A DNA stretch of 47,333 nt from Acidimicrobiales bacterium (lineage in GTDB: Bacteria; Actinomycetota; Acidimicrobiia; Acidimicrobiales; VFJN01): the NCBI GenBank assembly GCA_051306055.1, contig JBPPMN010000102.1, positions 1-47,333 on the forward strand, in the 5' to 3' direction. The notes below the pieces were generated by a model that was not told where the DNA came from, made no database searches, and worked only from the letters and a program-made list of their open reading frames with translations. Shown piece by piece: positions 16,650-31,715 of the stretch. Numbering within the stretch: position 1 is the first letter of the stretch; each line of letters begins with the position of its first letter. A program made the translations under genes and the position numbers.

Positions 16650-16707
16650 GATTTCCTCCGGGGGCTGTAGTTGATGACGTGTTTCGTCGTGTGGGTCCCA
16701 CCCGGAC

Positions 16708-16734
16708 GTTCCCCGGTGGCCAGCTCCGCAAACC
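16708..16734 (-). promoter_or_regulatory. SigF/SigB-type promoter for the microprotein (GGTTT-N16-GGGAAC)
   Basis: Minus strand GGTTT gcggagctggccaccg GGGAAC; adjacent to a SigF-type gene. Confidence 0.6.
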
Positions 16735-16789
16735 CGCAGCGTGCGACCAGGGTCACGATCGGTGGGCCGTGCCCAGTAGCCTCCCCCCG

Positions 16790-17554
16790 ATGTCAGAGGA
16801 CGAGCGGGAAGACGAGCAGCGGCAGTTCACCGAGCTGCGCCGCGGCAAGAGCTCCTCCCTGCGCGACCAGCTGATCGAGGAGCACATGTGGCTCGCTCGG
16901 CACTGCGCCCGCCGCTTCAGCGGCAAGGGCGAGTCGCCCGACGACCTCCTGCAGGTGGCCAACATGGCCTTGGTGAAGGCGGTCGACCGGTTCGATCCGT
17001 CGTTCAAGGTCCGCTTCGCCACCTTCGCCGTCCCCACCATCACCGGCGAGCTGCGCCGCCACTTCCGCGACCGCACCTGGTCGATGCGGGTCAGCCGCCG
17101 CCTGAAGGACCTCCACCTCGAGCTCAAGTCGGTGAGCGAGCAGATGGCCCACGACCTGGGCCGGGCGCCCAGCGTCGACGAGCTGGCCGCCGCCCTCGAC
17201 GTCACCCCTGAGCAGGTGCTGGAGGCACTGGAGGCCGGGGCCGCCTACCGGGCCTCCAGCCTCGACGCCCCGGTGGGCGGCGAGGGCGAGGAGGGCATCA
17301 TCCCGGGTGAGACCCACGGGGAGCTCGAGGACACCGGCGTGCGCGTGATGCTCCAGGAGGCCATGTCCAACCTCCCCGAGCGCGAGCGCCGGGTGGTCTA
17401 CCTGCGCTTCTACCTGGGCCTCACCCAATCGGAGATCGCCGAGGAGATCGGCGTCAGCCAGGTGCACGTGTCGCGCATCTTGCGGGCCACGCTGGCCCAG
17501 CTGGCCGACGAGCTCGGGACCGACGTGGCCGACACCGCCTTCGATGCTGGTTGA
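16790..17554 (+). CDS. RNA polymerase sigma factor, SigB/SigF/SigG family
   Basis: DDLLQVA-LVKAVDRFDP, FATFAVPTITGELRRHFRD, TQSEIAEEIGVSQVHVSR; TAGCCT -10 lies 7 nt before ATG 16790. Confidence 0.94.
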   Translation: MSEDEREDEQRQFTELRRGKSSSLRDQLIEEHMWLARHCARRFSGKGESPDDLLQVANMALVKAVDRFDPSFKVRFATFAVPTITGELRRHFRDRTWSMRVSRRLKDLHLELKSVSEQMAHDLGRAPSVDELAAALDVTPEQVLEALEAGAAYRASSLDAPVGGEGEEGIIPGETHGELEDTGVRVMLQEAMSNLPERERRVVYLRFYLGLTQSEIAEEIGVSQVHVSRILRATLAQLADELGTDVADTAFDAG

Positions 17555-17623
17555 GCACGATCGTTCGGAGCCGGTCGGTGGGCCGTGTAGCCTGCGCACC
17601 GCAGTTCGTCCACCACGGAGAGC

Positions 17624-17971
17624 GTGATGCCGTCAGCGCCGCAAGGCTTCTCAGTCGAGGTGGGCCCCCCCGAGGCGGGTGCCACCATGATCCGCGTGCA
17701 CGGCGAGCTCGACATGAGCACGTCGCCGGAGCTCGCCACCGCGGCCACCAAGGCCGGAGCCGATGCCAGCCAGGTGGTGCTCGACCTGAGCGGGGTCACC
17801 TTCCTCGACTCGTCGGCCATCGGCGCCCTGGTGGCGGTGGGCACCGAGCTGTCTGGCTCCGGCAGCCGGTTGCAGATCGGCCCCCGCTCCGACGTGGTCA
17901 GCCGGGTGCTGGAGATCACCGGCCTGGCCGAGCCCTCCGACGCCTTCGACGTCCTGCCCGACCCGTCCTGA
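17624..17971 (+). CDS. STAS-domain anti-sigma factor antagonist
   Basis: VHGELDMST, VVLDLSGVTFLDSSAIG, VSRVLEITGL. Confidence 0.92.
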   Translation: MMPSAPQGFSVEVGPPEAGATMIRVHGELDMSTSPELATAATKAGADASQVVLDLSGVTFLDSSAIGALVAVGTELSGSGSRLQIGPRSDVVSRVLEITGLAEPSDAFDVLPDPS

Positions 17972-20632: not shown

Positions 20633-23056
20633 TCAGACGGAGGCCAGCTCGGGCTCGTCGAGGTCGTCGAGCTCCTCGTGGGCGGCGGCGGTGTCGGGCG
20701 TGCCCTCCACGTTGATGGTGGGCAGGATGCGGTCGAGCCAGCGCGGCAGCCACCAGTTGCGGTCGCCGAGGAGCTCCATCGTGGCGGGCACCAGGAGCAT
20801 CCGCACCACGGTGGCGTCGAGGAAGATGGCGGTGGCCAGCCCCACGCCGAAGAGCTTGAAGGTGCGGTCGTTCTCGAGCAGGAACGCCCCGAAGATGAAC
20901 ACCATGATGGCGGCGGCGGCGGTGATGACCCGGGCTGTGGCGGCCAGGCCGTTGGCCACCGAGGTGTGGCTGTCGCCGGTGCGGACGTACTCCTCCTTGA
21001 TCCGGGACAGCAGGAACACCTCGTAGTCCATGGAGAGCCCGAAGACGATGGCGAAGAGCATCATCGGGGCGAAGGTCTCGATGGGCCCGGGGGCCAGGCC
21101 GGTGAGGTCGCTGAACCAACCCCACTGCACGAGGGCCACCATGATCCCGTAGGCGGCACCGATCGAGAGCAGGTTCATGATCACCGCCTTGAGCGGCACC
21201 AGCAGCGAGCGGAAGACCAGCATCAGCAGCAGGAACGAGAGCACCAGCACGGCGGCGAAGAAGAACGGCATCCGGCTGCTGAGCAGCTCAGAGAAGTCCA
21301 CCGTCGACGGCACCTGCCCGGTGACGGCCACCTCGGCCCCGAGCGCGGCCTCGCCCTCGTCGAGCACGTCGTCGCGCAGGCGGTTCACCAGCGCGGTGGT
21401 CTCGGCGTCCTGGGGCGACGAGGTGGGGGTGACCTGCCACAGGAAGGCCTGGCCCGACTCGGCCGGGATGGGCGGCGACACGAAGGCCACGCCGGGATCG
21501 GCGGCCACGGCGTCGGTGATGCCGGCCAGCACGTCGGGGTCGGCCGGTCCCTCGAGCTGGGTGGCCAGGAAGAACGGGCCGTTGAAGCCCGGCCCGAAGC
21601 CCTCGGCCAGCAGGTCGTAGGCCTCGCGGGTGGTGGTGCCCTCGGCGAAGTTGCCCTCGTCGGAGAAGCCGAGGCGCAGGCCGAGCACGGGGATCGACAG
21701 CACCAGCAGCAGCAGGGCACCACCGATGGCGGCCGGCCACGGGTTGCGCTGGATGAAGCGGCTCCAGCGGTAGGCGAAGGTCTCCCGCAGCGGCCGGGGC
21801 GGCCGGCGGCGCAGCTCCTTGCGCAGCGGGGCCACGGCGAAGCCGAGGGCCAGCACCACGATGGCCAGGGGGAAGCCGACCATGAGCGGGGCTGCCTTGA
21901 GGCCGACGCCGACCAGGCCGAGGGCCACGAAGCCGGTGGCCACGATCCCCCGCCAGCGGGTGACCTCCACCCGCTCGCCGGCGAAGCCCAGCAGGGCGGG
22001 CAGCAGCGTGAGCGACGCCACCACGGTCATGGCCACCACCACGGCGGCGCTGATGGCCAGGCCCTGGATGAAGGCCACGCCCATCACGAGCATGCCGAGG
22101 AAGGAGATCACCACGGTGACGCCGGCGAAGGCCACCGAGCGCCCGGCGGTGTCGATGGCGATGGCCGTCGCCTCCTCCGGGCTGTGGCCGTGGTGGAGGT
22201 TCTCGCGGTAGCGGGTGACGATCAGCAGCGCGTAGTCGATGCCGACGCCGAGCCCGATCATGATCCCGAGGAAGGGGGCGAAGTCGGGCATCTCGATGAG
22301 GTTCGACAGCACCGTGACCACCATCGAGCCGGCGATGATGCCGGCCAGGGCCACGCCGATGGGGAGGCCCATGGCCAGCACCGAGCCGAAGGCCACCACG
22401 AGGATGATGGTGGCGAAGGCCAGGCCGAGGATCTCGGCAGAGGGCTCCTCGAACTCACCAAGGGCGCCACCGCCCAGCTCCACCTGGAGACCGTCGACGG
22501 CAGGCAGCAGGTGCTCGAGGGTGCGGCCGATCTCGCCGGCCTCCTCCCAGTCGTCGCCGGGGATCTCGAGCTGGGCGAAGGCGATGGTGCCCGCCACCTC
22601 GGGGCGGGTGGCGACCTGCCGGGCGCCCGCTTCCTCGTAGGGGCTCACCAGGGTGATGCCCGCCAGCAGCTCCAGCGGCGAGCCCTCGAGAGCGGTGAGG
22701 GCGTCGTCGTCGAGGTGGGCCAGCGCCGGCGTCGAGCGCACGTCGAGCTCGGGGTCCTCGGCCAGCGCGGTGATGGCGCCGAAGGTCTGCTCCATGGCCT
22801 CCTGGACGGCGGGGTCGGTGACGCCCTGCCCGGCCTGGAACACGATCGTGCCCTGCACGCCCGCCCCCTGGCCACCGAACTCCTCCTCGAGGATGTCGAG
22901 GCCGCGTGTGCTCTCGAAGTCGGGGGCGGTGAAGTCCTGACCGAACTTGCCGCCGACGGCGCCGGAGATCGAGCCGACGACGACGATGCCGATGAGCCAG
23001 GCGATGGCCACCAGCTTGCGCTGGCGGAAGCACCAGGAGCCGAGACGAGCGAACAC
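20633..23056 (-). CDS. MMPL/RND family transporter
   Basis: Two repeats with [11 protein letters not shown] and [11 protein letters not shown]; GFGPGFNGP; GGAGG RBS before GTG 23056. Confidence 0.92.
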
Positions 23057-23222
23057 GGGGGGGACCTCCGGGGGAGTCGAGCGAGGGGTACCGGTGAGAC
23101 GGAGCTCGACCGCCGGGGTCATCGCCGCACCGATGCTGACGAGCAACCTACGACGGCCGGGCGCGTTCGCAATCAGGGATCCCCCTGACTGTGACGCATG
23201 TCATGGGGGCCCGATTAGGGTC

Positions 23223-24074: not shown

Positions 24075-24410
24075 GTGGACCGGTACCAGTACCTCGCGCT
24101 GATGGGCGCCTGCCTGCTCATCACGCTCCCGCTGGAGCTGGTGCTCGGCGCCCGGGTGTGGCGCCAGCCCAAACGGCTGGTGCGGGCGCTGGCCCCGGCC
24201 TTCGGGGTGTTCGTGCTGTGGGACCTGTGGGCCACCGCCAGCGGCACCTGGGGGTTCAGCGAGCAGTACACCATCGGCATCGAGGCGCCCGGCGGGATGG
24301 CCATCGAGGAGCTGGTGTTCTTCGCCGTGATCCCGATCTGCGGGCTGCTCACCCTCGAGGCGGTGCGGAACCTGCTGCCACAGGTGACCGAGCGGGTGCG
24401 GTCGCGCTGA
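24075..24410 (+). CDS. crtYc: Lycopene cyclase domain protein (heterodimeric cyclase subunit)
   Basis: Hydrophobic; FVLWDLWA...WGF...IEELVFF motif; crt cluster context. Confidence 0.85.
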   Translation: MDRYQYLALMGACLLITLPLELVLGARVWRQPKRLVRALAPAFGVFVLWDLWATASGTWGFSEQYTIGIEAPGGMAIEELVFFAVIPICGLLTLEAVRNLLPQVTERVRSR

Positions 24411-24769
24411 TGCCGCCCATCTACCCCACGCTGGCCGTGCTGTCGGCCGTGCTGGTGATCCTGCTCGAGGTGAAGGTGCTGCGCACGGGGCTGTTCCGCG
24501 ACGCCGCCTACTGGATCTCGATGGCCATCTGCACGGCCTTCATGATCCCGGTCGACGGCTGGCTCACGAAGCTGTCGGCGCCCATCGTGCTGTACCGCCC
24601 CGAGGACAACACCGGCATCCGTCCCATCTGGGACATCCTCATCGAGGAGTACGCCTACGCCTTCGCCATGCTCACCGGCGTGATGCTCATGTGGGACTGG
24701 CTGGGGCGCCGCGAGGGCGGCGAAGATGGAGCCGCCATGACCGTCGACCACGAGGAGCTGGGGGTATGA
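24410..24769 (+). CDS. crtYd: Lycopene cyclase domain protein, second subunit
   Basis: TGATG overlap; IPVDGWLTKL...PIVLY...IEEYAYAF. Confidence 0.8.
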   Translation: MPPIYPTLAVLSAVLVILLEVKVLRTGLFRDAAYWISMAICTAFMIPVDGWLTKLSAPIVLYRPEDNTGIRPIWDILIEEYAYAFAMLTGVMLMWDWLGRREGGEDGAAMTVDHEELGV

Positions 24770-25242
24770 GCCCGCTGCTGCTCGTGCTGGCCGCCTTCGT
24801 GGCCATGGAGGCGGTGAGCTACGCCGCCCACCGCTGGGTGATGCACGGCTTCGCCATGGTGTGGCACCGCAGCCACCACGCCCCGAGAGACTCGTTCTTC
24901 GAGAAGAACGACCTGTTCCCGGTGTGCTTCTCGGCCGTGGGCATCGCCCTGTTCGCCCTCGGGGCCGGCGGCGCCAACGCACTGTGGTGGGTGGCCATCG
25001 GCGTCACGCTCTACGGCGCCGTCTACACCTTCATCCACGAGGTCTACATCCACCACCGCCTGCCCGTCCGGCTGCCGAAGCTGGCCTACCTGGAGTGGCT
25101 GCGCGAGGCCCACCGCGACCACCACCTCACCGGCGCCGAGCCCTACGGGATGCTCCTCCCGCTGGTGCGAGGCGACGTCCCCGAGGCCCGCCGAGCCGGC
25201 ACCGACCCCCTCGACCGCTCCGAGGTCACACCCGTCGGCTGA
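24766..25242 (+). CDS. crtZ: Beta-carotene hydroxylase (fatty-acid hydroxylase superfamily)
   Basis: ME-AAHRWVMHG, WHRSHH, FEKNDLF, IHEVYIHHR, AHRDHH histidine boxes. Confidence 0.85.
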   Translation: MSPLLLVLAAFVAMEAVSYAAHRWVMHGFAMVWHRSHHAPRDSFFEKNDLFPVCFSAVGIALFALGAGGANALWWVAIGVTLYGAVYTFIHEVYIHHRLPVRLPKLAYLEWLREAHRDHHLTGAEPYGMLLPLVRGDVPEARRAGTDPLDRSEVTPVG

Positions 25243-25711
25243 GCACCTTCAGGGCCCGGAGGCGGTTGTAGCGCTGGACGGCGATGAAGGGGGCGTTCAC
25301 CAGCACGCCGTAGGCCACCATCAGGCCCAAGCCGCTGGGTGGGTTCCACAGCGCGAAGACCGGACCGGCGGCCAGGGCCAACCAGTGACCCCGCTCGGCC
25401 CGGCGGGTCTCCGCCACGAAGCGGGGCAGGCCGCCGGAGAGCGTTCCGGTGAGCTCCCGCTTCGACACCCCACCCGAGAAGAGGGCCCCGGCCTCCGGCA
25501 GGTGGTCCTTCCACGACCGGATGCGCAGCACCCGCTGGTAGGTGCGGCCGTCGCGCTCCCAACGTCGGGACCCCAGCAGCGGGCCGTCGTGCTGGAGGCG
25601 GCCGAGGGGCAGGCGGTGCACCACGTACCCGCTGGCGGTGTGGATGACGGCCCAGGCCACCACGTTGGCCAGCAGCGTGCCCCAGAACGAGAGGCTGACC
25701 AGGACCGGCAT
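25226..25711 (-). CDS. Carotenoid glycoside acyltransferase, staphyloxanthin CrtO-like
   Basis: LRIRSWKDHLPEAG, FVAETRRAERGHW, NAPFIAVQRYNR. Confidence 0.78.
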   Translation of the reverse strand: MPVLVSLSFWGTLLANVVAWAVIHTASGYVVHRLPLGRLQHDGPLLGSRRWERDGRTYQRVLRIRSWKDHLPEAGALFSGGVSKRELTGTLSGGLPRFVAETRRAERGHWLALAAGPVFALWNPPSGLGLMVAYGVLVNAPFIAVQRYNRLRALKVLSRRV

Positions 25712-26802
25712 CAGGCCTTGCGCAGGTCGATCGACCGACCCCGCCAGGTGACCTGGCGGCGCACCACGCGCAGCACCAGCGAGCGGACGAACAGGACCAC
25801 GAAGGCCGTGAGCGCGACCGGGAACAGCACCGACGTCCACCAGCGGAACGAGCCGAGGCGGCGGAGCATCCAGGCCAGCTGCCCGGCCACCGCCGCGTAG
25901 GCGACGGCCGCCCAGGGCGTGGACCACAGCACCAGCTCGATGGCGGCCGACACGGCGGCGCACACCCACAGCACGGCACCGATGAGCGGGAGCGGGCGGG
26001 CCCGGCGGGCGCCGCCCGAGAGGTTCTTGCTCCAGCCCTCCACCAGCGAGCGCAGGCCGTCGGGGTACATGCGGAACCGCACCACGTCGCCGCCGCCCAG
26101 GCAGCGGACCGGCCGGTCGGTCCGCTCGAAGGCCCGGGCCAGGGCGATGTCCTCGATGCTCTCCCCCGCCACCGCCGCGAAGCCGCCGGCGGCGGCCAGC
26201 GCCTCACTGCTGGTGACGAGGCACGGACCGAAGGCCACCCCGGGGGATCGGGCCGGCCGCAGGGCCGCCGTGCCGGAGGCCAGCACCGACACCACGTTGG
26301 GGAAGGCCGACAGCTGCTCGTAGGGCCGCTCGGTGACGTGGAAGGGCTGCACCGACAGCAGCCCGTTCGGGGCGAGCCGGTCGTGGGCGGCGGCCAGGTG
26401 GGCCACGCCGTCAGGGCTGAGCCAGGTGTCGGCATCGAGCAGGAGGAGGACCTCGCCGCGGGCGGCGGCCACGCCGGTGGCGCAGGCCCACGGCTTGCCC
26501 GCCCACCCAGCCGGGAGGTCCTCGGTGGCCACCACGACCGCGCCGAGGTCGGCCGCGACGGCGGCGGTGGCGTCGGTGGAGCCGTCGTCGACCACGATCA
26601 CCTCGAGCGGGGGGACGTTCTGCGCTCGCAGCGACCCCAGCAGCCGCGGCAGGTTGTGGGCCTCGTCGCGAGCAGGCACCACCACCGAGACGGCGGCCGC
26701 CAGCGCCCCGTCGCCGGCCGCACCCGGGGTGCGCACCCGCCACAGCAGCACCAGGCCGGCCAGCCAACCGCCGGCCAGCAGGACGAGCGTGCTGGCGGTC
26801 AC
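25711..26802 (-). CDS. GT2 glycosyltransferase, CrtQ/CruC-like
   Basis: VVVPARDEA, VDDGSTD, GWAGKPWAC, LDAD, FGPC, EDIALA, RFRMY...GWSKN; N- and C-terminal hydrophobic segments. Confidence 0.85.
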   Translation of the reverse strand: MTASTLVLLAGGWLAGLVLLWRVRTPGAAGDGALAAAVSVVVPARDEAHNLPRLLGSLRAQNVPPLEVIVVDDGSTDATAAVAADLGAVVVATEDLPAGWAGKPWACATGVAAARGEVLLLLDADTWLSPDGVAHLAAAHDRLAPNGLLSVQPFHVTERPYEQLSAFPNVVSVLASGTAALRPARSPGVAFGPCLVTSSEALAAAGGFAAVAGESIEDIALARAFERTDRPVRCLGGGDVVRFRMYPDGLRSLVEGWSKNLSGGARRARPLPLIGAVLWVCAAVSAAIELVLWSTPWAAVAYAAVAGQLAWMLRRLGSFRWWTSVLFPVALTAFVVLFVRSLVLRVVRRQVTWRGRSIDLRKA

Positions 26803-27650
26803 CGCTCCTTGAGCACCATGCGCCCGGCCAAGGTGGCCTTGCGCCAGGTGGGCACGGTGGCCCGGGTGGTGAAGACGTCGTAGTCGGCCGCCTCGATCCG
26901 GTCGAGGATCTCCGAGTACAGGGTGCGGGCCGCCTTGATGCAGCGGGCCGAGGTGACCGGCAGCATGCCCACCCCCATGTCGGCCGAGCGGTAGAGCTGC
27001 CGGCACCGGTCGATCTCGAAGCGCATCAGCTGCCGCCAGGGCTCGTCGACCACGCGCCGGTGGGGGTCGGCGCCGAATCGGTCGAGGTCCTCCTGTGGGA
27101 TGTACACCCGGCCGCGGTCGAGGTCTTCGGCGACGTCGCGCAGGAAGTTGGTGAGCTGGAAGGCGTCGCCGAGGTCGCGGGCGTGCTGGAGAGCCTCGGG
27201 CTGCAGGGGCTCCAGGATCGGGAGCATCATCTCGCCGATCACGGCGGCGGAGCCGTCCATGTAGCCGAGCAGGTCGTCCCAGGTGGCGTAGCTGGTGACG
27301 GTGAGGTCCATGGCCATCGAGCGCAGGAAGCGCCGGAAGCAGTCCCGGTCGATGTCGAAGGCCCGCACGGTGTGAACGACGGCCTTGAGCACCGGGTCGT
27401 CGGAGCGGCCCACCTCGAGGTCGGCGAAGAAGCGGTCGCCGAAGTCGGTCAGGGCCTTCTCCCGCACCTCCACGGGGGCGGGGCCGAGGTCGTCGACGAT
27501 GTCGTCGGCGTGGCGGCAGAAGGCGTAGAGGGCCCACACGTGGTGGCGCTTGAGCCGGGGCAGGGCGTAGGTGGACCAGTAGTAGGTGGTGCCGTAGCGC
27601 TTGTTGAGCTCCCGGCACCGGGCGTAGCTCTCGTCGAGCGTGACGGTCAT
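26799..27650 (-). CDS. crtB: Phytoene synthase
   Basis: YAFCRHADDIVD, LGDAFQLTNFLRDVAEDLDRGRVYIP. Confidence 0.95.
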   Translation of the reverse strand: MTVTLDESYARCRELNKRYGTTYYWSTYALPRLKRHHVWALYAFCRHADDIVDDLGPAPVEVREKALTDFGDRFFADLEVGRSDDPVLKAVVHTVRAFDIDRDCFRRFLRSMAMDLTVTSYATWDDLLGYMDGSAAVIGEMMLPILEPLQPEALQHARDLGDAFQLTNFLRDVAEDLDRGRVYIPQEDLDRFGADPHRRVVDEPWRQLMRFEIDRCRQLYRSADMGVGMLPVTSARCIKAARTLYSEILDRIEAADYDVFTTRATVPTWRKATLAGRMVLKER

Positions 27651-27651
27651 C

Positions 27652-29139
27652 TCAGCCCTCCATGGCGGCGACGCGCTGCGCCGCCAGCATGCCCGACACC
27701 AGCACCATGGGCACGCCGACGCCGGGCAGGGTGCTGGATCCGGTGAACACGAGACCGGGCGCCCGCTTCTCCAGGTTCCCGGGACGGAAGGGTCCGGTCT
27801 GGCGGAACTTGTGCGACAGGGCGAAGGGCGTGCCCCGCTCCATGCCCTGGCGCTCCCAGTCGAGCGGGTCGACCAGCTCCTCCACGTCGATGGCGGTGGG
27901 GTACCCGAGGCGCTCGAGGTGGCCCAGCATCTGCTCGCGGGCCCGGGGACGCTCGCGGGTCCAGTCGACGGTGCCGTCGAGGTTGGGGGTGGGCTCGAGC
28001 ACGTAGATGGCGTGGCCGCCCTCGGGCGCCATCGTGGGCTCGTGGAGCGACGGCACGCTCACCAGCAGCGACGGGTCGGGCATCCGCACGCCGTCCTTGA
28101 GGATGGCCCGGAAGGCGCCGTCCCAGTCGGTGCCGAAGTGGATGTTGTGGTGCTCGGTGCCCGGCGGGAGGTCGCCCCGCACGCCGACGTGCCACACCAG
28201 CGCGGAGGGCGAGTAGTCGCCCCGTCGGGCCATCAGCGGCATGGGGGTGCCGGGCAGAAGGGTGCGGTAGGCCACGGGCAGGTCGGGGTTGGCCACCACG
28301 GCGTCGGCCTCGACCACCTCCCCATCCTCGAGGCGCACGCCGGTGACGGCCCCGGAGGTGCCCTGGCGCAGCAGGATGCGATCGACGCGGGTGTCGTAGC
28401 GGAAGGTGGCGCCGGCCCGCTCGGCGGCCGTGGCCAGGGCCACCGGCAGGGCGTGCATCCCACCCACGGGGATGAACACGCCGTTGACGCTGTCCATGTA
28501 GGTGATCACGGCGTAGATGGCCAGCGCCTCGTAGGGGGCCAGGCCGGCGTACATCGACTGGAAGCTGAAGATGCGCTGCAGGCGCTCGTCGGAGAAGTAG
28601 CTGCTCACCACCTTGGCCAGCTTGCGGAACCCGCCCATGCGCACGAGGTCGAGCGCCGGCTTGAGCGGCGAGGCGAGGTCGAGCGGCGAGTCGAAGCTGC
28701 GCTCGATGAAGTTGGGCATCTCGAGCTCGTAGAGCTTGCCCAGCCACTCGCAGAAGCGGCCGAAGGCCTCGGCTTCGGTGGGGCCGCAGACGCGACGGAT
28801 CTCCTCGGTCATGGCCTCGCGCCCGTGGCGCACGCGCAGCTCGGAGCCGTCGGCGTAGCAGGCGCGGTACATCGGGTCGACGGGCCGCAGGGTGAGCAGC
28901 TCCGAGCCGTCGACGCCCGCGGCCTCGAAGCAGCGGTCGATCAGGTTGGGCATGGTGAGCACGGTGGGCCCGGTGTCGAAGCGGTAGCCGCCGCGCTCCA
29001 GGCTGCCGGCGCGCCCGCCGGGGATCGAGGCCGCCTCCAGCACCGTGACGTCGTGGCCGGCCCCGGCCAGGTGGCAGGCGGCCGAGAGGCCGCCCAGGCC
29101 GGCACCGACGATGACCACCCGCTTCGCCACGGTCACCAC
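27652..29139 (-). CDS. crtI: Phytoene desaturase
   Basis: GAGLGGL FAD motif, GYRFDTGPTVLTMP, FQSMYAGL, PGVGVPMVLVSG. Confidence 0.94.
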   Translation of the reverse strand: MVTVAKRVVIVGAGLGGLSAACHLAGAGHDVTVLEAASIPGGRAGSLERGGYRFDTGPTVLTMPNLIDRCFEAAGVDGSELLTLRPVDPMYRACYADGSELRVRHGREAMTEEIRRVCGPTEAEAFGRFCEWLGKLYELEMPNFIERSFDSPLDLASPLKPALDLVRMGGFRKLAKVVSSYFSDERLQRIFSFQSMYAGLAPYEALAIYAVITYMDSVNGVFIPVGGMHALPVALATAAERAGATFRYDTRVDRILLRQGTSGAVTGVRLEDGEVVEADAVVANPDLPVAYRTLLPGTPMPLMARRGDYSPSALVWHVGVRGDLPPGTEHHNIHFGTDWDGAFRAILKDGVRMPDPSLLVSVPSLHEPTMAPEGGHAIYVLEPTPNLDGTVDWTRERPRAREQMLGHLERLGYPTAIDVEELVDPLDWERQGMERGTPFALSHKFRQTGPFRPGNLEKRAPGLVFTGSSTLPGVGVPMVLVSGMLAAQRVAAMEG

Positions 29140-30830
29140 CGCCGTTCGATGGCCAGGCCGGCCAGCTCGCGCAGAGCGGAGGCGGCCGGCTCGGGGAGCC
29201 CGACGAGCGCCTCGAGGGCGAGGGCGTGCTGGGCGGCGAGCAGCGCCTCCACCGAGGCCAGGGCGCCGGAGTCGGCCACCGCAGCGCGCGCCTCAGCGGC
29301 TCGCTCCTCGTCGAGGTCGGGGTCGCCCAGGCAGGCTTCGAGCACCCGGCGCTGGCCGTCGTCGGCCAGGCGGAGGGCTCGCAGCACCAGCACCGTGCGC
29401 TTGCCCTCGCGGAGGTCGTCGAGGGCGCTCTTGCCGGTGACGGCCGGATCACCGAAGAGGCCGAGGATGTCGTCGCGCATCTGGAAGGCGATGCCCACCG
29501 CGTCGCCGTAGGCGGCCAGGAGAGGGGACACCAGGTGGCCCTCGGGCGCCAGCGCGGCGCCCAGCTCCAGCGGGCGGGTGACGGTGTAGCGGGCCGACTT
29601 CAGCAGGGCGACGTGGCGGGCGCCGTCCTCGTGGGCGGCCGGGTCGGCGGCCAGCACGAGGTCGAGGTGCTGGCCGGCGATCACCTCGCGGCGCAGGGTG
29701 GTGAACACCGCCCGGGCGCGGGCGACGGCGTCGGCCGGGAGGTCGGTGGCGTCGAAGAGCTCGTCGGCCCATACGTAGGTGAGGTCGCCAGCCAGGATGG
29801 CGGCACTGCAGCCGAACCAGTCGCTGTCGCCCAGCCGATCGCCGGCGAGGTGGCGCTGGGCGAAGCCGGCGTAGGCGCTGGGACGACCGCGCCGCGTGGC
29901 CGAGCGGTCCATCACGTCGTCGTGGAGCAGAGCAAAGGTGTGCAGCAGCTCCACCGCCGCGGCAGGCCGCAGCACGGCCTCGTCGTGGTCGGCGCCGGCG
30001 GCCCGGTGGCCCCAGTAGACGAAGGCAGGGCGGAGGCGCTTGCCCCCGGCGTCGACCAGCGCCCGTATCTCGTCGGTGACCTCCGCCAAGGCGGGATCGA
30101 CGGCGACCGTCTCCGCCGCCTTGGCGTCGAGGAAGGTTCCGAGCAGCTCGCGCAGCGGGCCGCGGACGACGGCCAGCGGATCGCCCGCCGGCGCAACGGG
30201 AGCCGGGGCGCCGGCCAGGGCGATGGGCTGGTCGAGCAGCGTCTGCGAGCGGGCGGCGGCCGGGCCGTCGAGCCACTCGGCCGGGGAGGGGGCCAGGTCG
30301 TGCAGCTGGCGGATCTGCTCCACCGACCACGGGCTCAGGGTGGCGGGCTCGTGGGTGGCCCGGGCCACCAGGTCGTCCCAGCCCAGCCACACGAGGTCGT
30401 CGACCTCGTCGGGGTCGGCGGCGACCGGGCCCGTCACCTCGGCGACGGCCACGGGGCACAGCTCGTGCTCCACCGTGCCATCGGCCATCTGGGCACGGTA
30501 GGCGAAGTCGGGCAGCGCCAGCCCGACGCGACCCACCGCCAGGCCCAGCTCCTCGCCCACGCGCCGGGTGATGGCCTGGCGCATCGTCTCGCCGGTCTGG
30601 GGGTGTCCGCAGCAGCCGTTGGTCCAGGTTCCCGGCCAGGTGCGCTTGGAGAGCGCCCGACGGGTGAGGAGCACAGCGCCGTCGGCTCGCACGAGGTGGC
30701 AGGAGAAGGCCAGGTGCAGGGCGGTGGCGTCGTGGTGGGCGACCGCCTTGGGCTCGGTGGCGACGGGACGGCCACGCCGGTCGAGCAGCACCACGTGCTC
30801 CGTCGCCTGGGAGATCTCGCGCACCGACAT
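29133..30830 (-). CDS. Fused type-1 IPP isomerase (Idi) and polyprenyl/GGPP synthase (CrtE)
   Basis: N-terminal HLAFS, WTNGCCGHP, EHELCPV; C-terminal GGKRLRP, LLHDDVMD, FQMRDD, DDLREGK; one continuous frame; TAGCCT -10 7 nt before the ATG. Confidence 0.85.
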   Translation of the reverse strand: MSVREISQATEHVVLLDRRGRPVATEPKAVAHHDATALHLAFSCHLVRADGAVLLTRRALSKRTWPGTWTNGCCGHPQTGETMRQAITRRVGEELGLAVGRVGLALPDFAYRAQMADGTVEHELCPVAVAEVTGPVAADPDEVDDLVWLGWDDLVARATHEPATLSPWSVEQIRQLHDLAPSPAEWLDGPAAARSQTLLDQPIALAGAPAPVAPAGDPLAVVRGPLRELLGTFLDAKAAETVAVDPALAEVTDEIRALVDAGGKRLRPAFVYWGHRAAGADHDEAVLRPAAAVELLHTFALLHDDVMDRSATRRGRPSAYAGFAQRHLAGDRLGDSDWFGCSAAILAGDLTYVWADELFDATDLPADAVARARAVFTTLRREVIAGQHLDLVLAADPAAHEDGARHVALLKSARYTVTRPLELGAALAPEGHLVSPLLAAYGDAVGIAFQMRDDILGLFGDPAVTGKSALDDLREGKRTVLVLRALRLADDGQRRVLEACLGDPDLDEERAAEARAAVADSGALASVEALLAAQHALALEALVGLPEPAASALRELAGLAIERRW

Positions 30831-30850
30831 GGCGTGGAGGCTACCCGCTG

Positions 30851-30878
30851 TCGAGATAACCTCCACATCGTGTCTACA
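30851..30878. promoter_or_regulatory. CarH/CarA-type operator: three TnnACA-like repeats at 11-bp spacing
   Basis: TCGAGA 30851, TCCACA 30862, TCTACA 30873, overlapping the divergent promoters. Confidence 0.6.
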
Positions 30879-31715
30879 TCTGTTCCTGCGGCCGCCGGTC
30901 TGACCATCTCCGCGGTGGCCGCGCGCACGGGGGTGAGCGTCTCCGTGCTGCGGGCGTGGGAGGCCCGCCATGGCTTCCCGGAGCCGGAGCGGCTCCTCTC
31001 CGGCCACCGCCGGTACCCGGAAGCCGAGGTCGACCGGATCCTGCAGGTCGTGGCGGAGCGCAGGGCCGGCCGCACGTTGGAGGCGGCCATCACCGCCGTC
31101 CGCCACTCCGTCACCGATGCCCCCGCCGGGCTCCCCCAGCCTGGTGACCGCCACCGCTCGATCTTCGCCGGGCTCCGTCGGGCCCGTCCCGACCTCCATG
31201 CGCTGCCCCTCGGCCGCCGGACCATGCTGGCGCTGAGCCAGGCCATCGAGGACGAGGCCCGTGCGCACGCCGACCGACCTCACCTGATCGCCGCCTTCCA
31301 GACGCGCACCGCGTACGAGGCGGCCCACGACCGGTGGGCCGACCTCTCTGCCACCGCGGCCGCCACGATCGTCCTGGCCGACTTCCCGCGCAGCCGCCGC
31401 CGCGGCGCGGTGCTCGAGGTGGGCATCCCCGTCGGCGACCCCTTGCGCCGCGAGTGGTCGGTCGTGTGCGACGCCCCCGGCTCGGCCGCCCTCCTCGCTG
31501 GCTGGGAGCGGTCCGACGGGCGGTTCGAGGCGATCTGGACGGTGGACGCGCACGCCGTGCGGCTGGCCAGCGACCTCGGGCGCGGCCTCGCCGCGCACCA
31601 CGCCCCCCGCCTCGACCTGGGACCGGCGCCGGCCGCCGTCCACGACGACCCGGCCGCCGCGGTGGTCCGCAGCGCGGCGGTGACGCGGCGGGTGGTGGCC
31701 TACCTCGACCGGTGA
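30870..31715 (+). CDS. MerR-family (CarH/LitR-like HTH) regulator with C-terminal DICT sensory domain
   Basis: [37 protein letters not shown]; DICT-like [33 protein letters not shown] -10 7 nt before the GTG. Confidence 0.85.
   Translation: [281 protein letters not shown]

Follow-up and report, generated by a model that had tools for sequence, protein, structure and literature searches.

Light-induced carotenoid synthesis in non-phototrophic bacteria is known to be controlled by B12-dependent CarH/LitR proteins, by class II LitR under the command of a LOV protein, by the CarA/CarS pair and by the MarR-type CrtR. CarH is defined by the motif Wx9EH in a four-helix bundle and by the cobalamin motif ExHx2G...SxV/T...GG in a Rossmann domain, and its tetramer occupies an operator of three to four tandem 11-bp direct repeats, nAnnTnnACAn (PMC8156234, available part of the text). 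The same text describes CarH and CarA as repressors that block RNA polymerase and that are released by light, CarH directly and CarA via CarS. The LitR proteins are divided into classes I–V by the phylogeny of their C-terminal parts; in the available part of PMC9758184, classes IV (Vibrio) and V (Micrococcales) are reported to have no B12 domain and an unknown function, and the class II protein PmlR2, a repressor with the same type of DNA-binding domain, belongs to a class that is released via a lit LOV protein. The present study concerns a regulator gene at 30870..31715 (+ strand) of a 47,333-nt stretch, here called the window (contig JBPPMN010000102.1 of the Acidimicrobiales bacterium assembly GCA_051306055.1). 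Its product joins a CarH-type DNA-binding head to a DICT domain, and the gene lies divergent from a carotenoid operon. On balance it is probable that this MerR-DICT protein is an autoregulated repressor of that operon, relieved by a light-linked signal acting through DICT.

The regulator gene starts with GTG 30870 and encodes 281 amino acids (the coordinates include the stop codon). Its frame, which ends at 31715 on the + strand, is open far upstream of this codon. The start was placed at GTG 30870 because it fits both the N-termini of the homologues, in which M/V-S-x-x immediately precedes a conserved G-L-T-I in the alignment, and their lengths (homologues of 272-280 aa cover 97-100%). A 266-aa version proposed by a gene caller was discarded, as it would lose the first helix of the helix-turn-helix (HTH), which is conserved in the alignment.

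The N-terminal residues 11-79 (30900..31106, +) form a CarH/LitR-type MerR winged-helix domain according to Pfam (MerR_1 and MerR), NCBIfam and PDB matches. The Pfam match extends over residues 12-76 (MerR_1, E 9e-11), and the best NCBIfam model was the CarH equivalog NF052513, matched over its first 75 positions only (49.9 bits, cut-off 400). A PDB search with a profile built from 42 homologues gave matches that all lay in the N-terminal 80-100 residues. The best of these were Thermus LitR/CarH (3whp and 5c8d, 1e-18), followed by the DNA-binding domain of CarA (2jml, 4e-17), while the remaining MerR proteins were matched at 2e-8 or weaker. Judged from these matches the DNA-binding domain is specifically CarH-like. 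The motif LRAWEARHG, singled out in a previous sequence-only reading of this DNA, was confirmed at residues 27-35, where it aligns to LRQWERRYG of Thermus CarH. Several homologues are named 'light-induced transcriptional regulator' in a public source.

No B12-binding family (PF02607, PF02310) was matched in the regulator by a Pfam scan, and neither Wx9EH nor [ED]xHxxG was seen by eye in its translation. Among 117 family sequences Wx9EH occurred once and [ED]xHxxG four times. The sequence-only reading had reported the absence of these cobalamin motifs and had proposed a MerR domain combined with DICT in place of a B12-binding domain; both points are borne out by the Pfam scan and the motif counts, with DICT (PF10069) at 51.6 bits against a cut-off of 23.8 over model positions 7-128 of 129. 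By its sequence the regulator is therefore a MerR protein of the LitR/CarH branch in which the cobalamin module has been replaced by DICT. Its AlphaFold (AF2) model (pLDDT 92.1, pTM 0.71) consists of the winged helix, a short helix (residues 70-82), a low-confidence linker (84-91), an alpha/beta domain and two long C-terminal helices. The long antiparallel coiled coil that follows the wing in MerR proteins is absent from the predicted model, as it is in CarH, which implies that oligomerization must come from the C-terminal module.

The core of the DICT domain lies at 31173..31508 (+, residues 102-213), the modelled domain reaching to about residue 250 with C-terminal helices up to residue 280; a search of the whole genome put DICT at 31170-31508. 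Foldseek with the whole model returned matches dominated by the DNA-binding domain. With VIA-align, run against 48,161 representative chains, the DICT residues ~106-250 could be placed. The nearest fold was the sugar-binding domain of TrmB (2f5t; Z 10.4, root-mean-square deviation 3.4, 124 residues), and TrmBL2 and then PLD-fold proteins, among them NucT, Zucchini, Nuc and polyphosphate kinase (Z 8-9), were also near. Because of these neighbours the modelled DICT is assigned to a TrmB-effector/PLD-like module and not to a Rossmann B12 domain. Like MerR-DICT, the members of the TrmB family (2F5T/3QPH/5BPD; Z 10.4, 9.2 and 9.3 over 121-135 residues) consist of an HTH followed by a PLD-like alpha/beta effector. 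The identity is 4-13%, however, and the HTH is of another type, so that the likeness is one of fold only. The PDB profile search gave no credible sequence match for the DICT part, and none to TrmB, and the ESM Atlas returned DICT clusters only.

Residue conservation was determined over 77 diverse representatives that are 34-58% identical to the query. E127, F143, E195 and W196 of DICT were invariant, and A125, D128, E129, Q144, R155, W156, A170, E213, F219 and W223 were conserved in at least 90%. The sole cysteine of the window regulator is residue 200. A two-copy prediction of residues 95-281 had a median of 0.32 against a mark of 0.42 and gave no verdict on a homodimer. Elsewhere in the genome DICT occurs just once, at the N-terminus of a protein of 378 aa (contig C272, locus L082, 721-1857, −), the C-terminal part of which reads from the sequence as a diguanylate cyclase of the GGDEF type. 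As judged by eye, this protein shares with the regulator, besides the Pfam domain, the positions S..IE, FQ, W196 and F219..W223; R155/W156, R194/E195 and W212/E213 are not kept, and its output is a diguanylate cyclase instead of DNA binding.

The regulator is separated by 39 bp (30831-30869) from ATG 30830, the start of the first gene of the operon on the − strand (29133..30830). In a single frame of 565 aa without an intervening stop this gene encodes a NUDIX-type isopentenyl diphosphate isomerase (residues 38-164) and a polyprenyl/geranylgeranyl diphosphate-type synthase (polyprenyl_synt, residues 253-515). The product of this idi-crtE fusion, which 9 of 11 orthologous loci also have in frame, the frame being different in L088 and L090, is probably a bifunctional first enzyme of the operon. 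It is followed on the same strand by crtI (phytoene desaturase, 27652..29139; Pfam Amino_oxidase, E 4e-43), which overlaps the end of crtE by 7 nt, and by crtB (phytoene synthase, 26799..27650; SQS_PSY, E 1.7e-72). A family-2 glycosyltransferase gene directly after crtB (25711..26850, −, start approximate; Glycos_transf_2, E 1.2e-22) is the probable last gene, and such a gene likewise follows crtB in loci L001, L031, L035 and L056. The divergence of the regulator from idi, crtE, crtI and crtB across 39 bp, as first read, thus stands, with idi and crtE being fused.

Convergent with the operon (24075-25242, +) are an open reading frame of 111 aa that has no Pfam match, a Lycopene_cyc domain match at 24422-24700 (+; 34.8 bits, cut-off 27) and a protein of the FA_hydroxylase family at 24691-25242 (+). 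Because of these Lycopene_cyc and FA_hydroxylase genes beside the crt operon, the product of the cluster may be a cyclic, hydroxylated and glycosylated carotenoid.

The divergent control region (30831..30869) is part of an 18-nt inverted repeat (30826-30843 / 30857-30874, 78% complementary by repeat search), and the promoters of idi-crtE and of the regulator mirror each other. The −10 box of the regulator, TAACCT (30857..30862, +), stands 7 nt ahead of GTG 30870, and that of idi-crtE, TAGCCT (30838..30843, −), which was read from the sequence, stands 7 nt ahead of ATG 30830. Since each box sits 7 nt before a start codon, both genes look leaderless; the transcription starts are inferred. Conservation was assessed in the window and nine orthologous regions, the regulators of which are 48-69% identical to that of the window. 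T30857, A30858 and T30862 of the regulator-side box were invariant in the 10 regions, and T30842, A30843 and C30844 on the other side were each present in 8. The arrangement TAGnnT, 7 nt, ATG was also seen by eye in L090 and L091. The two back-to-back boxes of the sequence-only reading are accordingly retained.

Three half-sites were conserved in the same alignment. H2, TGTCGAG (30849..30855), conforms to the family pattern TGTnGAG with T in 8, G in 8, T in 10, G in 9, A in 10 and G in 10 of the 10 regions. H3, CTCCACA (30861..30867; family CTCnACA), has C in 9, T in 10, C in 7, A in 9, C in 8 and A in 7, and scores 9.2 bits on the half-site matrix of the family. H4, TGTCTA (30871..30876; TGTCnA), has T in 10, G in 10, T in 9, C in 9 and A in 10. 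H2 and H3 form a palindrome (N5) around the −10 box, and H3 and H4 form an ACA-N3-TGT palindrome over the start site. H4 overlaps the start codon of the regulator and codons 2-3, so that T30871 and G30872 are start-codon bases as well, but A30876 is constant despite a variable amino acid at codon 3. Altogether T30851, A30854, G30855, T30857, A30858, T30862, T30871, G30872 and A30876 were found in all 10 regions, and G30853, C30861, A30865, C30869, T30873 and C30874 in 9. From this conservation a compound operator TGTnGAG-N5-CTCnACA-N3-TGTCnA is predicted at 30849-30876. The window contains it once and 100 shuffles never did, and the 3.72-Mb genome has a single exact TGTNGAG-N5-CTCNACA; as the window sequence was used in deriving both patterns, the counts are not independent of it. 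A mirrored left palindrome (…ACA-N3-cGT…, 30823-30839) over the idi start, present in the window, was dismissed, as it was not seen in L090, L091 and L101.

The control region had first been read as three TnnACA-like hexamers at 11-bp spacing, in the manner of CarH. The hexamers are indeed present, at 30851, 30862 and 30873, and their pattern has one occurrence in the window and none in 100 shuffles, although it was written from the window sequence itself. The CarH repeat nAnnTnnACAn, by contrast, is fitted only by the middle 11-mer (30858-30868), and the repeat search reported no direct repeat in the control region. In the orthologues the third 'ACA' is kept as A in 10, C in 3 and A in 4 of the 10, and the opposite-sense TGTC.A is conserved instead. 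The reading as 11-bp direct repeats was therefore rejected, and the operator logic of CarH, which the regulator had been proposed to keep, finds no support in the stated form. The operator is palindromic, with inverted instead of tandem half-sites, and has only the T..ACA flavour in common with CarH.

This type of operator is also found in the wider family. For 80 loci (the best 80 of at least 598; see below), ACA-N3-TGT was present within 130 bp upstream in 41, against 2.0 ± 1.3 (maximum 6) in controls made by first-order Markov resampling of the same upstream regions. Its density was 4.3/kb upstream as compared with 0.09/kb over the other 1.4 Mb of these loci. The consensus of the wider family is a 17-bp palindrome, CTCAACA-N3-TGTTGAG, with the half-site C-T-(C/A)-A-A-C-A. 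None of the nine crt-class loci has the exact ACA-N3-TGT in the 130-bp region; the crt clade uses the related compound site. In L004, L010 and L019 a second palindrome lies on the regulator start codon, 32-33 bp from the first. In L012 and L038 (Acidimicrobiaceae) and in L031, L035, L056 and L078 (Nocardioidaceae/Blastococcus), TGCA-centred repeats were seen by eye in place of ACA-N3-TGT, for instance TGCAAG-A-CTTGCA in L056 and, in both L012 and L038, three TGCA cores at distances of 10 and 12 bp. These may be a diverged operator. A genome-wide matrix scan for the 17-bp palindrome gave 45 sites above 14 bits. Of the top 16, 14 fall within coding sequence and two appear by eye to do so as well; a second target was not established. 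As the operator is unique in the genome, the crt operon is probably the only target there.

Relatives of MerR-DICT are encoded in at least 598 stretches from contigs of one genome per species, mostly of Actinomycetota. PF10069 was present in all 120 listed homologues and a MerR-type HTH in 118 of them. A search of 1.84 billion representatives yielded 138 cluster representatives at E ≤ 1e-30 and 472 at E ≤ 1e-10. The family is patchy: of 401 genomes sampled from the phylum 6 had it, which is a lower bound with six candidates scored per genome, and so did 14 of 80 genomes of the window's own taxonomic family (the window's genome included). Neighbours were counted in the best 80 of these loci, fetched with 10 kb around the regulator. 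By record titles these belong to Acidimicrobiales, Solirubrobacterales/Thermoleophilia and Nocardioidaceae/Propionibacteriales, with single records of Blastococcus and 'Kofleriaceae'; no record of Micrococcales was found among them. Three genes per side were clustered in the 66 loci in which the regulator had been called and were named with Pfam, after which one representative per cluster was searched over all 80 loci.

Within 10 kb a DNA photolyase was found in 22 of the 80 loci, crtE in 9, crtB in 8 and crtI in 7. By comparison, the 3.72-Mb genome of the window contains one photolyase match, and we estimate that about 0.5% of random 20-kb stretches would include it. Cyclopropane-fatty-acid synthase and DUF1365 were each present in 10 loci and an adjoining amine oxidase in 11; a cluster of the synthase and/or DUF1365 with the amine oxidase was present in 11. 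In total 33 loci had a photolyase, crtI with crtB, or this fatty-acid cluster. Other recurrent neighbours were an 85-aa protein without a family (23), an FHA protein (21), NmrA-like (18), SDR (14) and SRPBCC (14) proteins, an epimerase/DUF1731 protein (11), an ECF sigma factor (8) and an MPAB oxygenase (6). The gene immediately upstream was of the small protein/FHA type in 23 loci, of the epimerase-SRPBCC-photolyase type in 10, a crt gene divergent from the regulator in 9, of the amine oxidase-DUF1365-CFA synthase (cyclopropane-fatty-acid synthase) type in 7, an ECF sigma gene on the same strand in 7, SDR in 4, MPAB/SRPBCC in 3, NmrA in 3 and of another kind in 14. Inside the window's taxonomic family, idi/crtE is divergent from the regulator in 11 of the 13 other orthologous loci and an SRPBCC gene takes this place in the other two. 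Two of these loci, L092 and L095, are on the contigs of L001 and L002, which the 80 already include. An association of MerR-DICT with crt genes (9 of 80, and 11 of 13 in its own family) and photolyase genes (22 of 80), the count proposed together with the sequence-only reading, therefore exists, in favour of that reading. This set of neighbours is one of photoprotection and resembles the light-inducible LitR regulons of Pseudomonas, for which photolyase, furan fatty-acid synthase and a cryptochrome-like protein are reported (PMC9758184, available part).

A quick maximum-likelihood tree was built from 112 regulators, leaving out five duplicate loci and dropping rows that covered fewer than 200 query residues. 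The window protein fell in a clade of 10 crt-linked Acidimicrobiales sequences (SH-aLRT 99). The crt label required five changes on the tree, of which at least two are forced by supported branches. Crt linkage is therefore present in more than one clade, the other being that of the Nocardioidaceae.

The most frequent upstream arrangement (23 of 80; L003, L004, L010, L016, L019 and 18 more) consists of a divergent gene for the 85-aa protein, which has no Pfam family, and one for an FHA protein of some 290 aa; an NmrA-like gene often comes next. In L005, L014, L017, L022, L024, L059 and L067 the ECF sigma gene ends 12-92 bp ahead of MerR-DICT on the same strand; a palindrome upstream of MerR-DICT was not found in these seven loci.

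Compared with the described systems, the regulator is, on the features of its sequence, not a CarH, since the Wx9EH bundle, the ExHx2G Rossmann domain and the tandem-repeat operator are all missing, and by its DNA-binding domain it fits the wider LitR/CarH family. With CarH and class I LitR (Thermus thermophilus, 5C8D/5C8E; LitR of Bacillus megaterium and Streptomyces) it shares the subtype of MerR winged helix (E 1e-18), the motifs LRxWExRxGFPxP and GHRRY in the DNA-binding domain, the lack of the MerR coiled coil, the divergent placement beside carotenoid genes and the T..ACA letters of the half-site. Unlike CarH, it possesses neither the four-helix bundle nor the Rossmann B12 domain, its C-terminus being the TrmB/PLD-like DICT, and its half-sites are inverted and not arranged as tandem 11-bp repeats. 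Some relatives are paired with an ECF sigma gene, much as LitR is with LitS in Streptomyces (PMC11519972, available part). The LitR classes without B12, that is, class II (Pseudomonas PplR1/PmlR2), III (Burkholderia), IV and V, likewise combine a CarH-type head with a C-terminus that is unable to bind B12. In class II, photolyase and furan/cyclopropane fatty-acid synthase are also among the neighbours or in the regulon, and the sites are palindromic as well, the class II protein being a repressor with palindromic TGTACA; in contrast to MerR-DICT, class II LitR has retained the four-helix bundle and depends on a short LOV protein as partner (PMC9758184, available part). B12-less regulators with a CarH head are thus already known as LitR classes, so that MerR-DICT is less new than the sequence-only reading implied, and it could be identical to class V.

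Two further systems resemble the locus in other respects. CarA of Myxococcus xanthus has a CarH-like head and is a B12-free dark repressor of a carotenoid operon, but it carries a degenerate B12 domain and is relieved by CarS, a DNA mimic that is confined to myxobacteria (PMC8156234, available part). CrtR of Corynebacterium glutamicum and Micrococcales, of the MarR family, lies like MerR-DICT divergent from a crtE-led operon in Actinomycetota and is a repressor with light-inducible pigment (PMC6739363, available part). CrtR differs from MerR-DICT in being of an unrelated fold and family.

In the mechanism that is favoured, DICT-mediated oligomers would keep the CarH-like heads on the compound operator (30849-30876) in the dark. 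Protein bound there would mask the leaderless promoter of the regulator itself from about −21 to +8, including its −10 box and start site, and the mirrored promoter of idi-crtE from about −19 to −37, where its spacer and −35 zone lie, so that both would be shut. A light-linked signal via DICT would then weaken DNA binding and permit transcription of idi-crtE, crtI, crtB and the glycosyltransferase gene. The domain make-up, the missing B12 motifs, the conservation of operator and −10 boxes and the linkage of the family to photoprotection genes are observed; repression instead of activation, light as the signal and DICT as its receiver are what we infer, and reception by DICT could be direct, via a bound small molecule or via a partner protein. 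A link to light is judged probable from the photolyase and other light-protection genes next to the relatives. Repression is favoured because the tested proteins with the same type of DNA-binding domain (CarH, CarA and class II LitR) repress.

Several observations weigh against this mechanism. The conserved columns of DICT contain no cysteine or histidine and a known chromophore motif was not found in them; a nearest fold of the sugar-binding/PLD-like kind would be no less expected of a metabolite sensor than of a photoreceptor. About 47 of the 80 loci are without photolyase, crt or fatty-acid cluster, and the largest context class (23 of 80), that of the 85-aa and FHA proteins, has no known link to light. 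No operator copies were seen by eye ahead of the photolyase, SRPBCC, NmrA and epimerase genes of the genome, and a simple sigma-70 scan, which requires a −35 box, gave no promoter. The H2-H3 palindrome lies in the spacer/−35 zone of the idi promoter, a position that is also used by classical MerR activators. Literature searches found no expression, binding or light study of MerR-DICT, although papers and supplements that were not reached may say more. That DICT itself is a light sensor of an undescribed kind, without a B12, flavin-Cys or bilin-Cys signature, is rather unlikely; direct photoreception is a minority option because of the missing chromophore motif and the sugar-binding-like fold. 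In that case a candidate sensor cluster of acidic and aromatic residues (E127, D128, E129, R155, W156, E195, W196, E213, F219 and W223) could bind a non-covalent chromophore, or could serve as an intrinsic tryptophan/salt-bridge switch, like UVR8 for UV-B, that would break the operator-bound oligomer. A repressor whose DICT answers to something other than light is a possible, if doubtful, explanation. Its signal would be a metabolite (a photo-oxidation product, an isoprenoid diphosphate or a sugar-like ligand) or the docking of a separate photoreceptor or anti-repressor. This would agree with the closeness of the DICT fold to the TrmB sugar-binding domain, with the lack of a chromophore motif and of conserved Cys or His, with the precedents of the short LOV protein in B12-less LitR (PMC9758184, available part) and of CarS in CarA (PMC8156234, available part), and with the presence in the same genome of other candidate light sensors, namely an HTH protein with B12-binding domains, a heliorhodopsin and a photolyase homologue. 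On the other hand, no partner gene is conserved across the context classes, an isoprenoid ligand would not account for photolyase or fatty-acid-cluster neighbours, and DICT is also the N-terminal input of GGDEF proteins, one of them in this genome, which fits a self-contained sensor.

The regulator could also be an activator of the MerR type that stays on the idi-crtE promoter in both states and remodels the spacer DNA upon a signal, with its own gene being repressed. The operator of classical MerR proteins is a palindrome inside a long −35/−10 spacer of 19-20 bp; here palindromes are present and no −35 box was identified from which a spacer length could be taken. In favour of an activator are the lack of a recognizable −35 box, the membership of the MerR superfamily and the location of the H2-H3 palindrome between the −10 box and the −35 zone of the idi promoter. 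Moreover, in the class with the 85-aa and FHA proteins 4 nt separate the end of the 17-bp palindrome from a TAC..T −10 box downstream, so that the palindrome, as judged by eye, is centred near −25, the classical MerR position. Nevertheless, activation is distinctly unlikely, as the DNA-binding domain is of the CarH/CarA/LitR subtype, the tested members of which repress, the regulator's own −10 box and start site lie under H3 and H4, and the model misses the long antiparallel coiled coil which in the classical activators MerR, CueR and SoxR follows the wing. Finally, the adjacency might be incidental, the regulator acting only on itself or on distant genes and the crt operon being constitutive. 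In keeping with this, 71 of the 80 family members are not beside crt genes. The idi/crtE divergence, however, recurs in 11 of the 13 other loci from the window's taxonomic family, crt linkage occurs in at least two clades of the quick tree, and conserved half-sites lie inside the 39-bp gap common to both promoters, which makes a mere coincidence of position very improbable.

Other features were noted in the window and the genome. The window contains an MMPL transporter gene (20633-23146, −) and, at 16679-17971 (+), a gene for a group-3-like sigma factor (regions 2, 3 and 4; 291 aa) followed by one for a STAS-domain protein, a candidate anti-sigma-factor antagonist. On contig C255 (locus L083, 1198-1971, +) a protein of 257 aa is encoded in which HTH_17 is combined with the domains B12-binding_2 and B12-binding, and which contains a W-x9-EH stretch. 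Apart from its HTH, which is of another type, this architecture resembles that of CarH, so that light sensing through cobalamin may exist in the organism as well. Contig C91 (locus L129, 3067-3780, −) carries a gene for a heliorhodopsin (PF18761, 324.6 bits). BLUF was not found in a search of the genome; Blh/Brp and bacteriorhodopsin gave no match there either, but this is uninformative as the control genomes were silent as well.

The described controls of carotenoid synthesis are thus joined by a protein in which a CarH head is linked to a domain for which the literature searched names no ligand, and which occurs in hundreds of species. The question of the DICT ligand becomes testable with it, since the protein is small and soluble, the site is a 17-bp palindrome, the pigment is visible and cultured Nocardioides carriers exist. 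If DICT is photosensory, it would represent a new class of photoreceptor and a compact B12-free light switch for high-GC hosts. With light sensing by DICT, if true, a single protein would switch photolyase, membrane-lipid and carotenoid genes in Actinomycetota in response to UV or light, and in cyanobacteria and haloarchaea the module would provide input to c-di-GMP and two-component signalling. If DICT binds a metabolite, this would show chemical sensing of photo-oxidative damage. Either outcome would also explain the DICT-GGDEF and DICT-kinase proteins.

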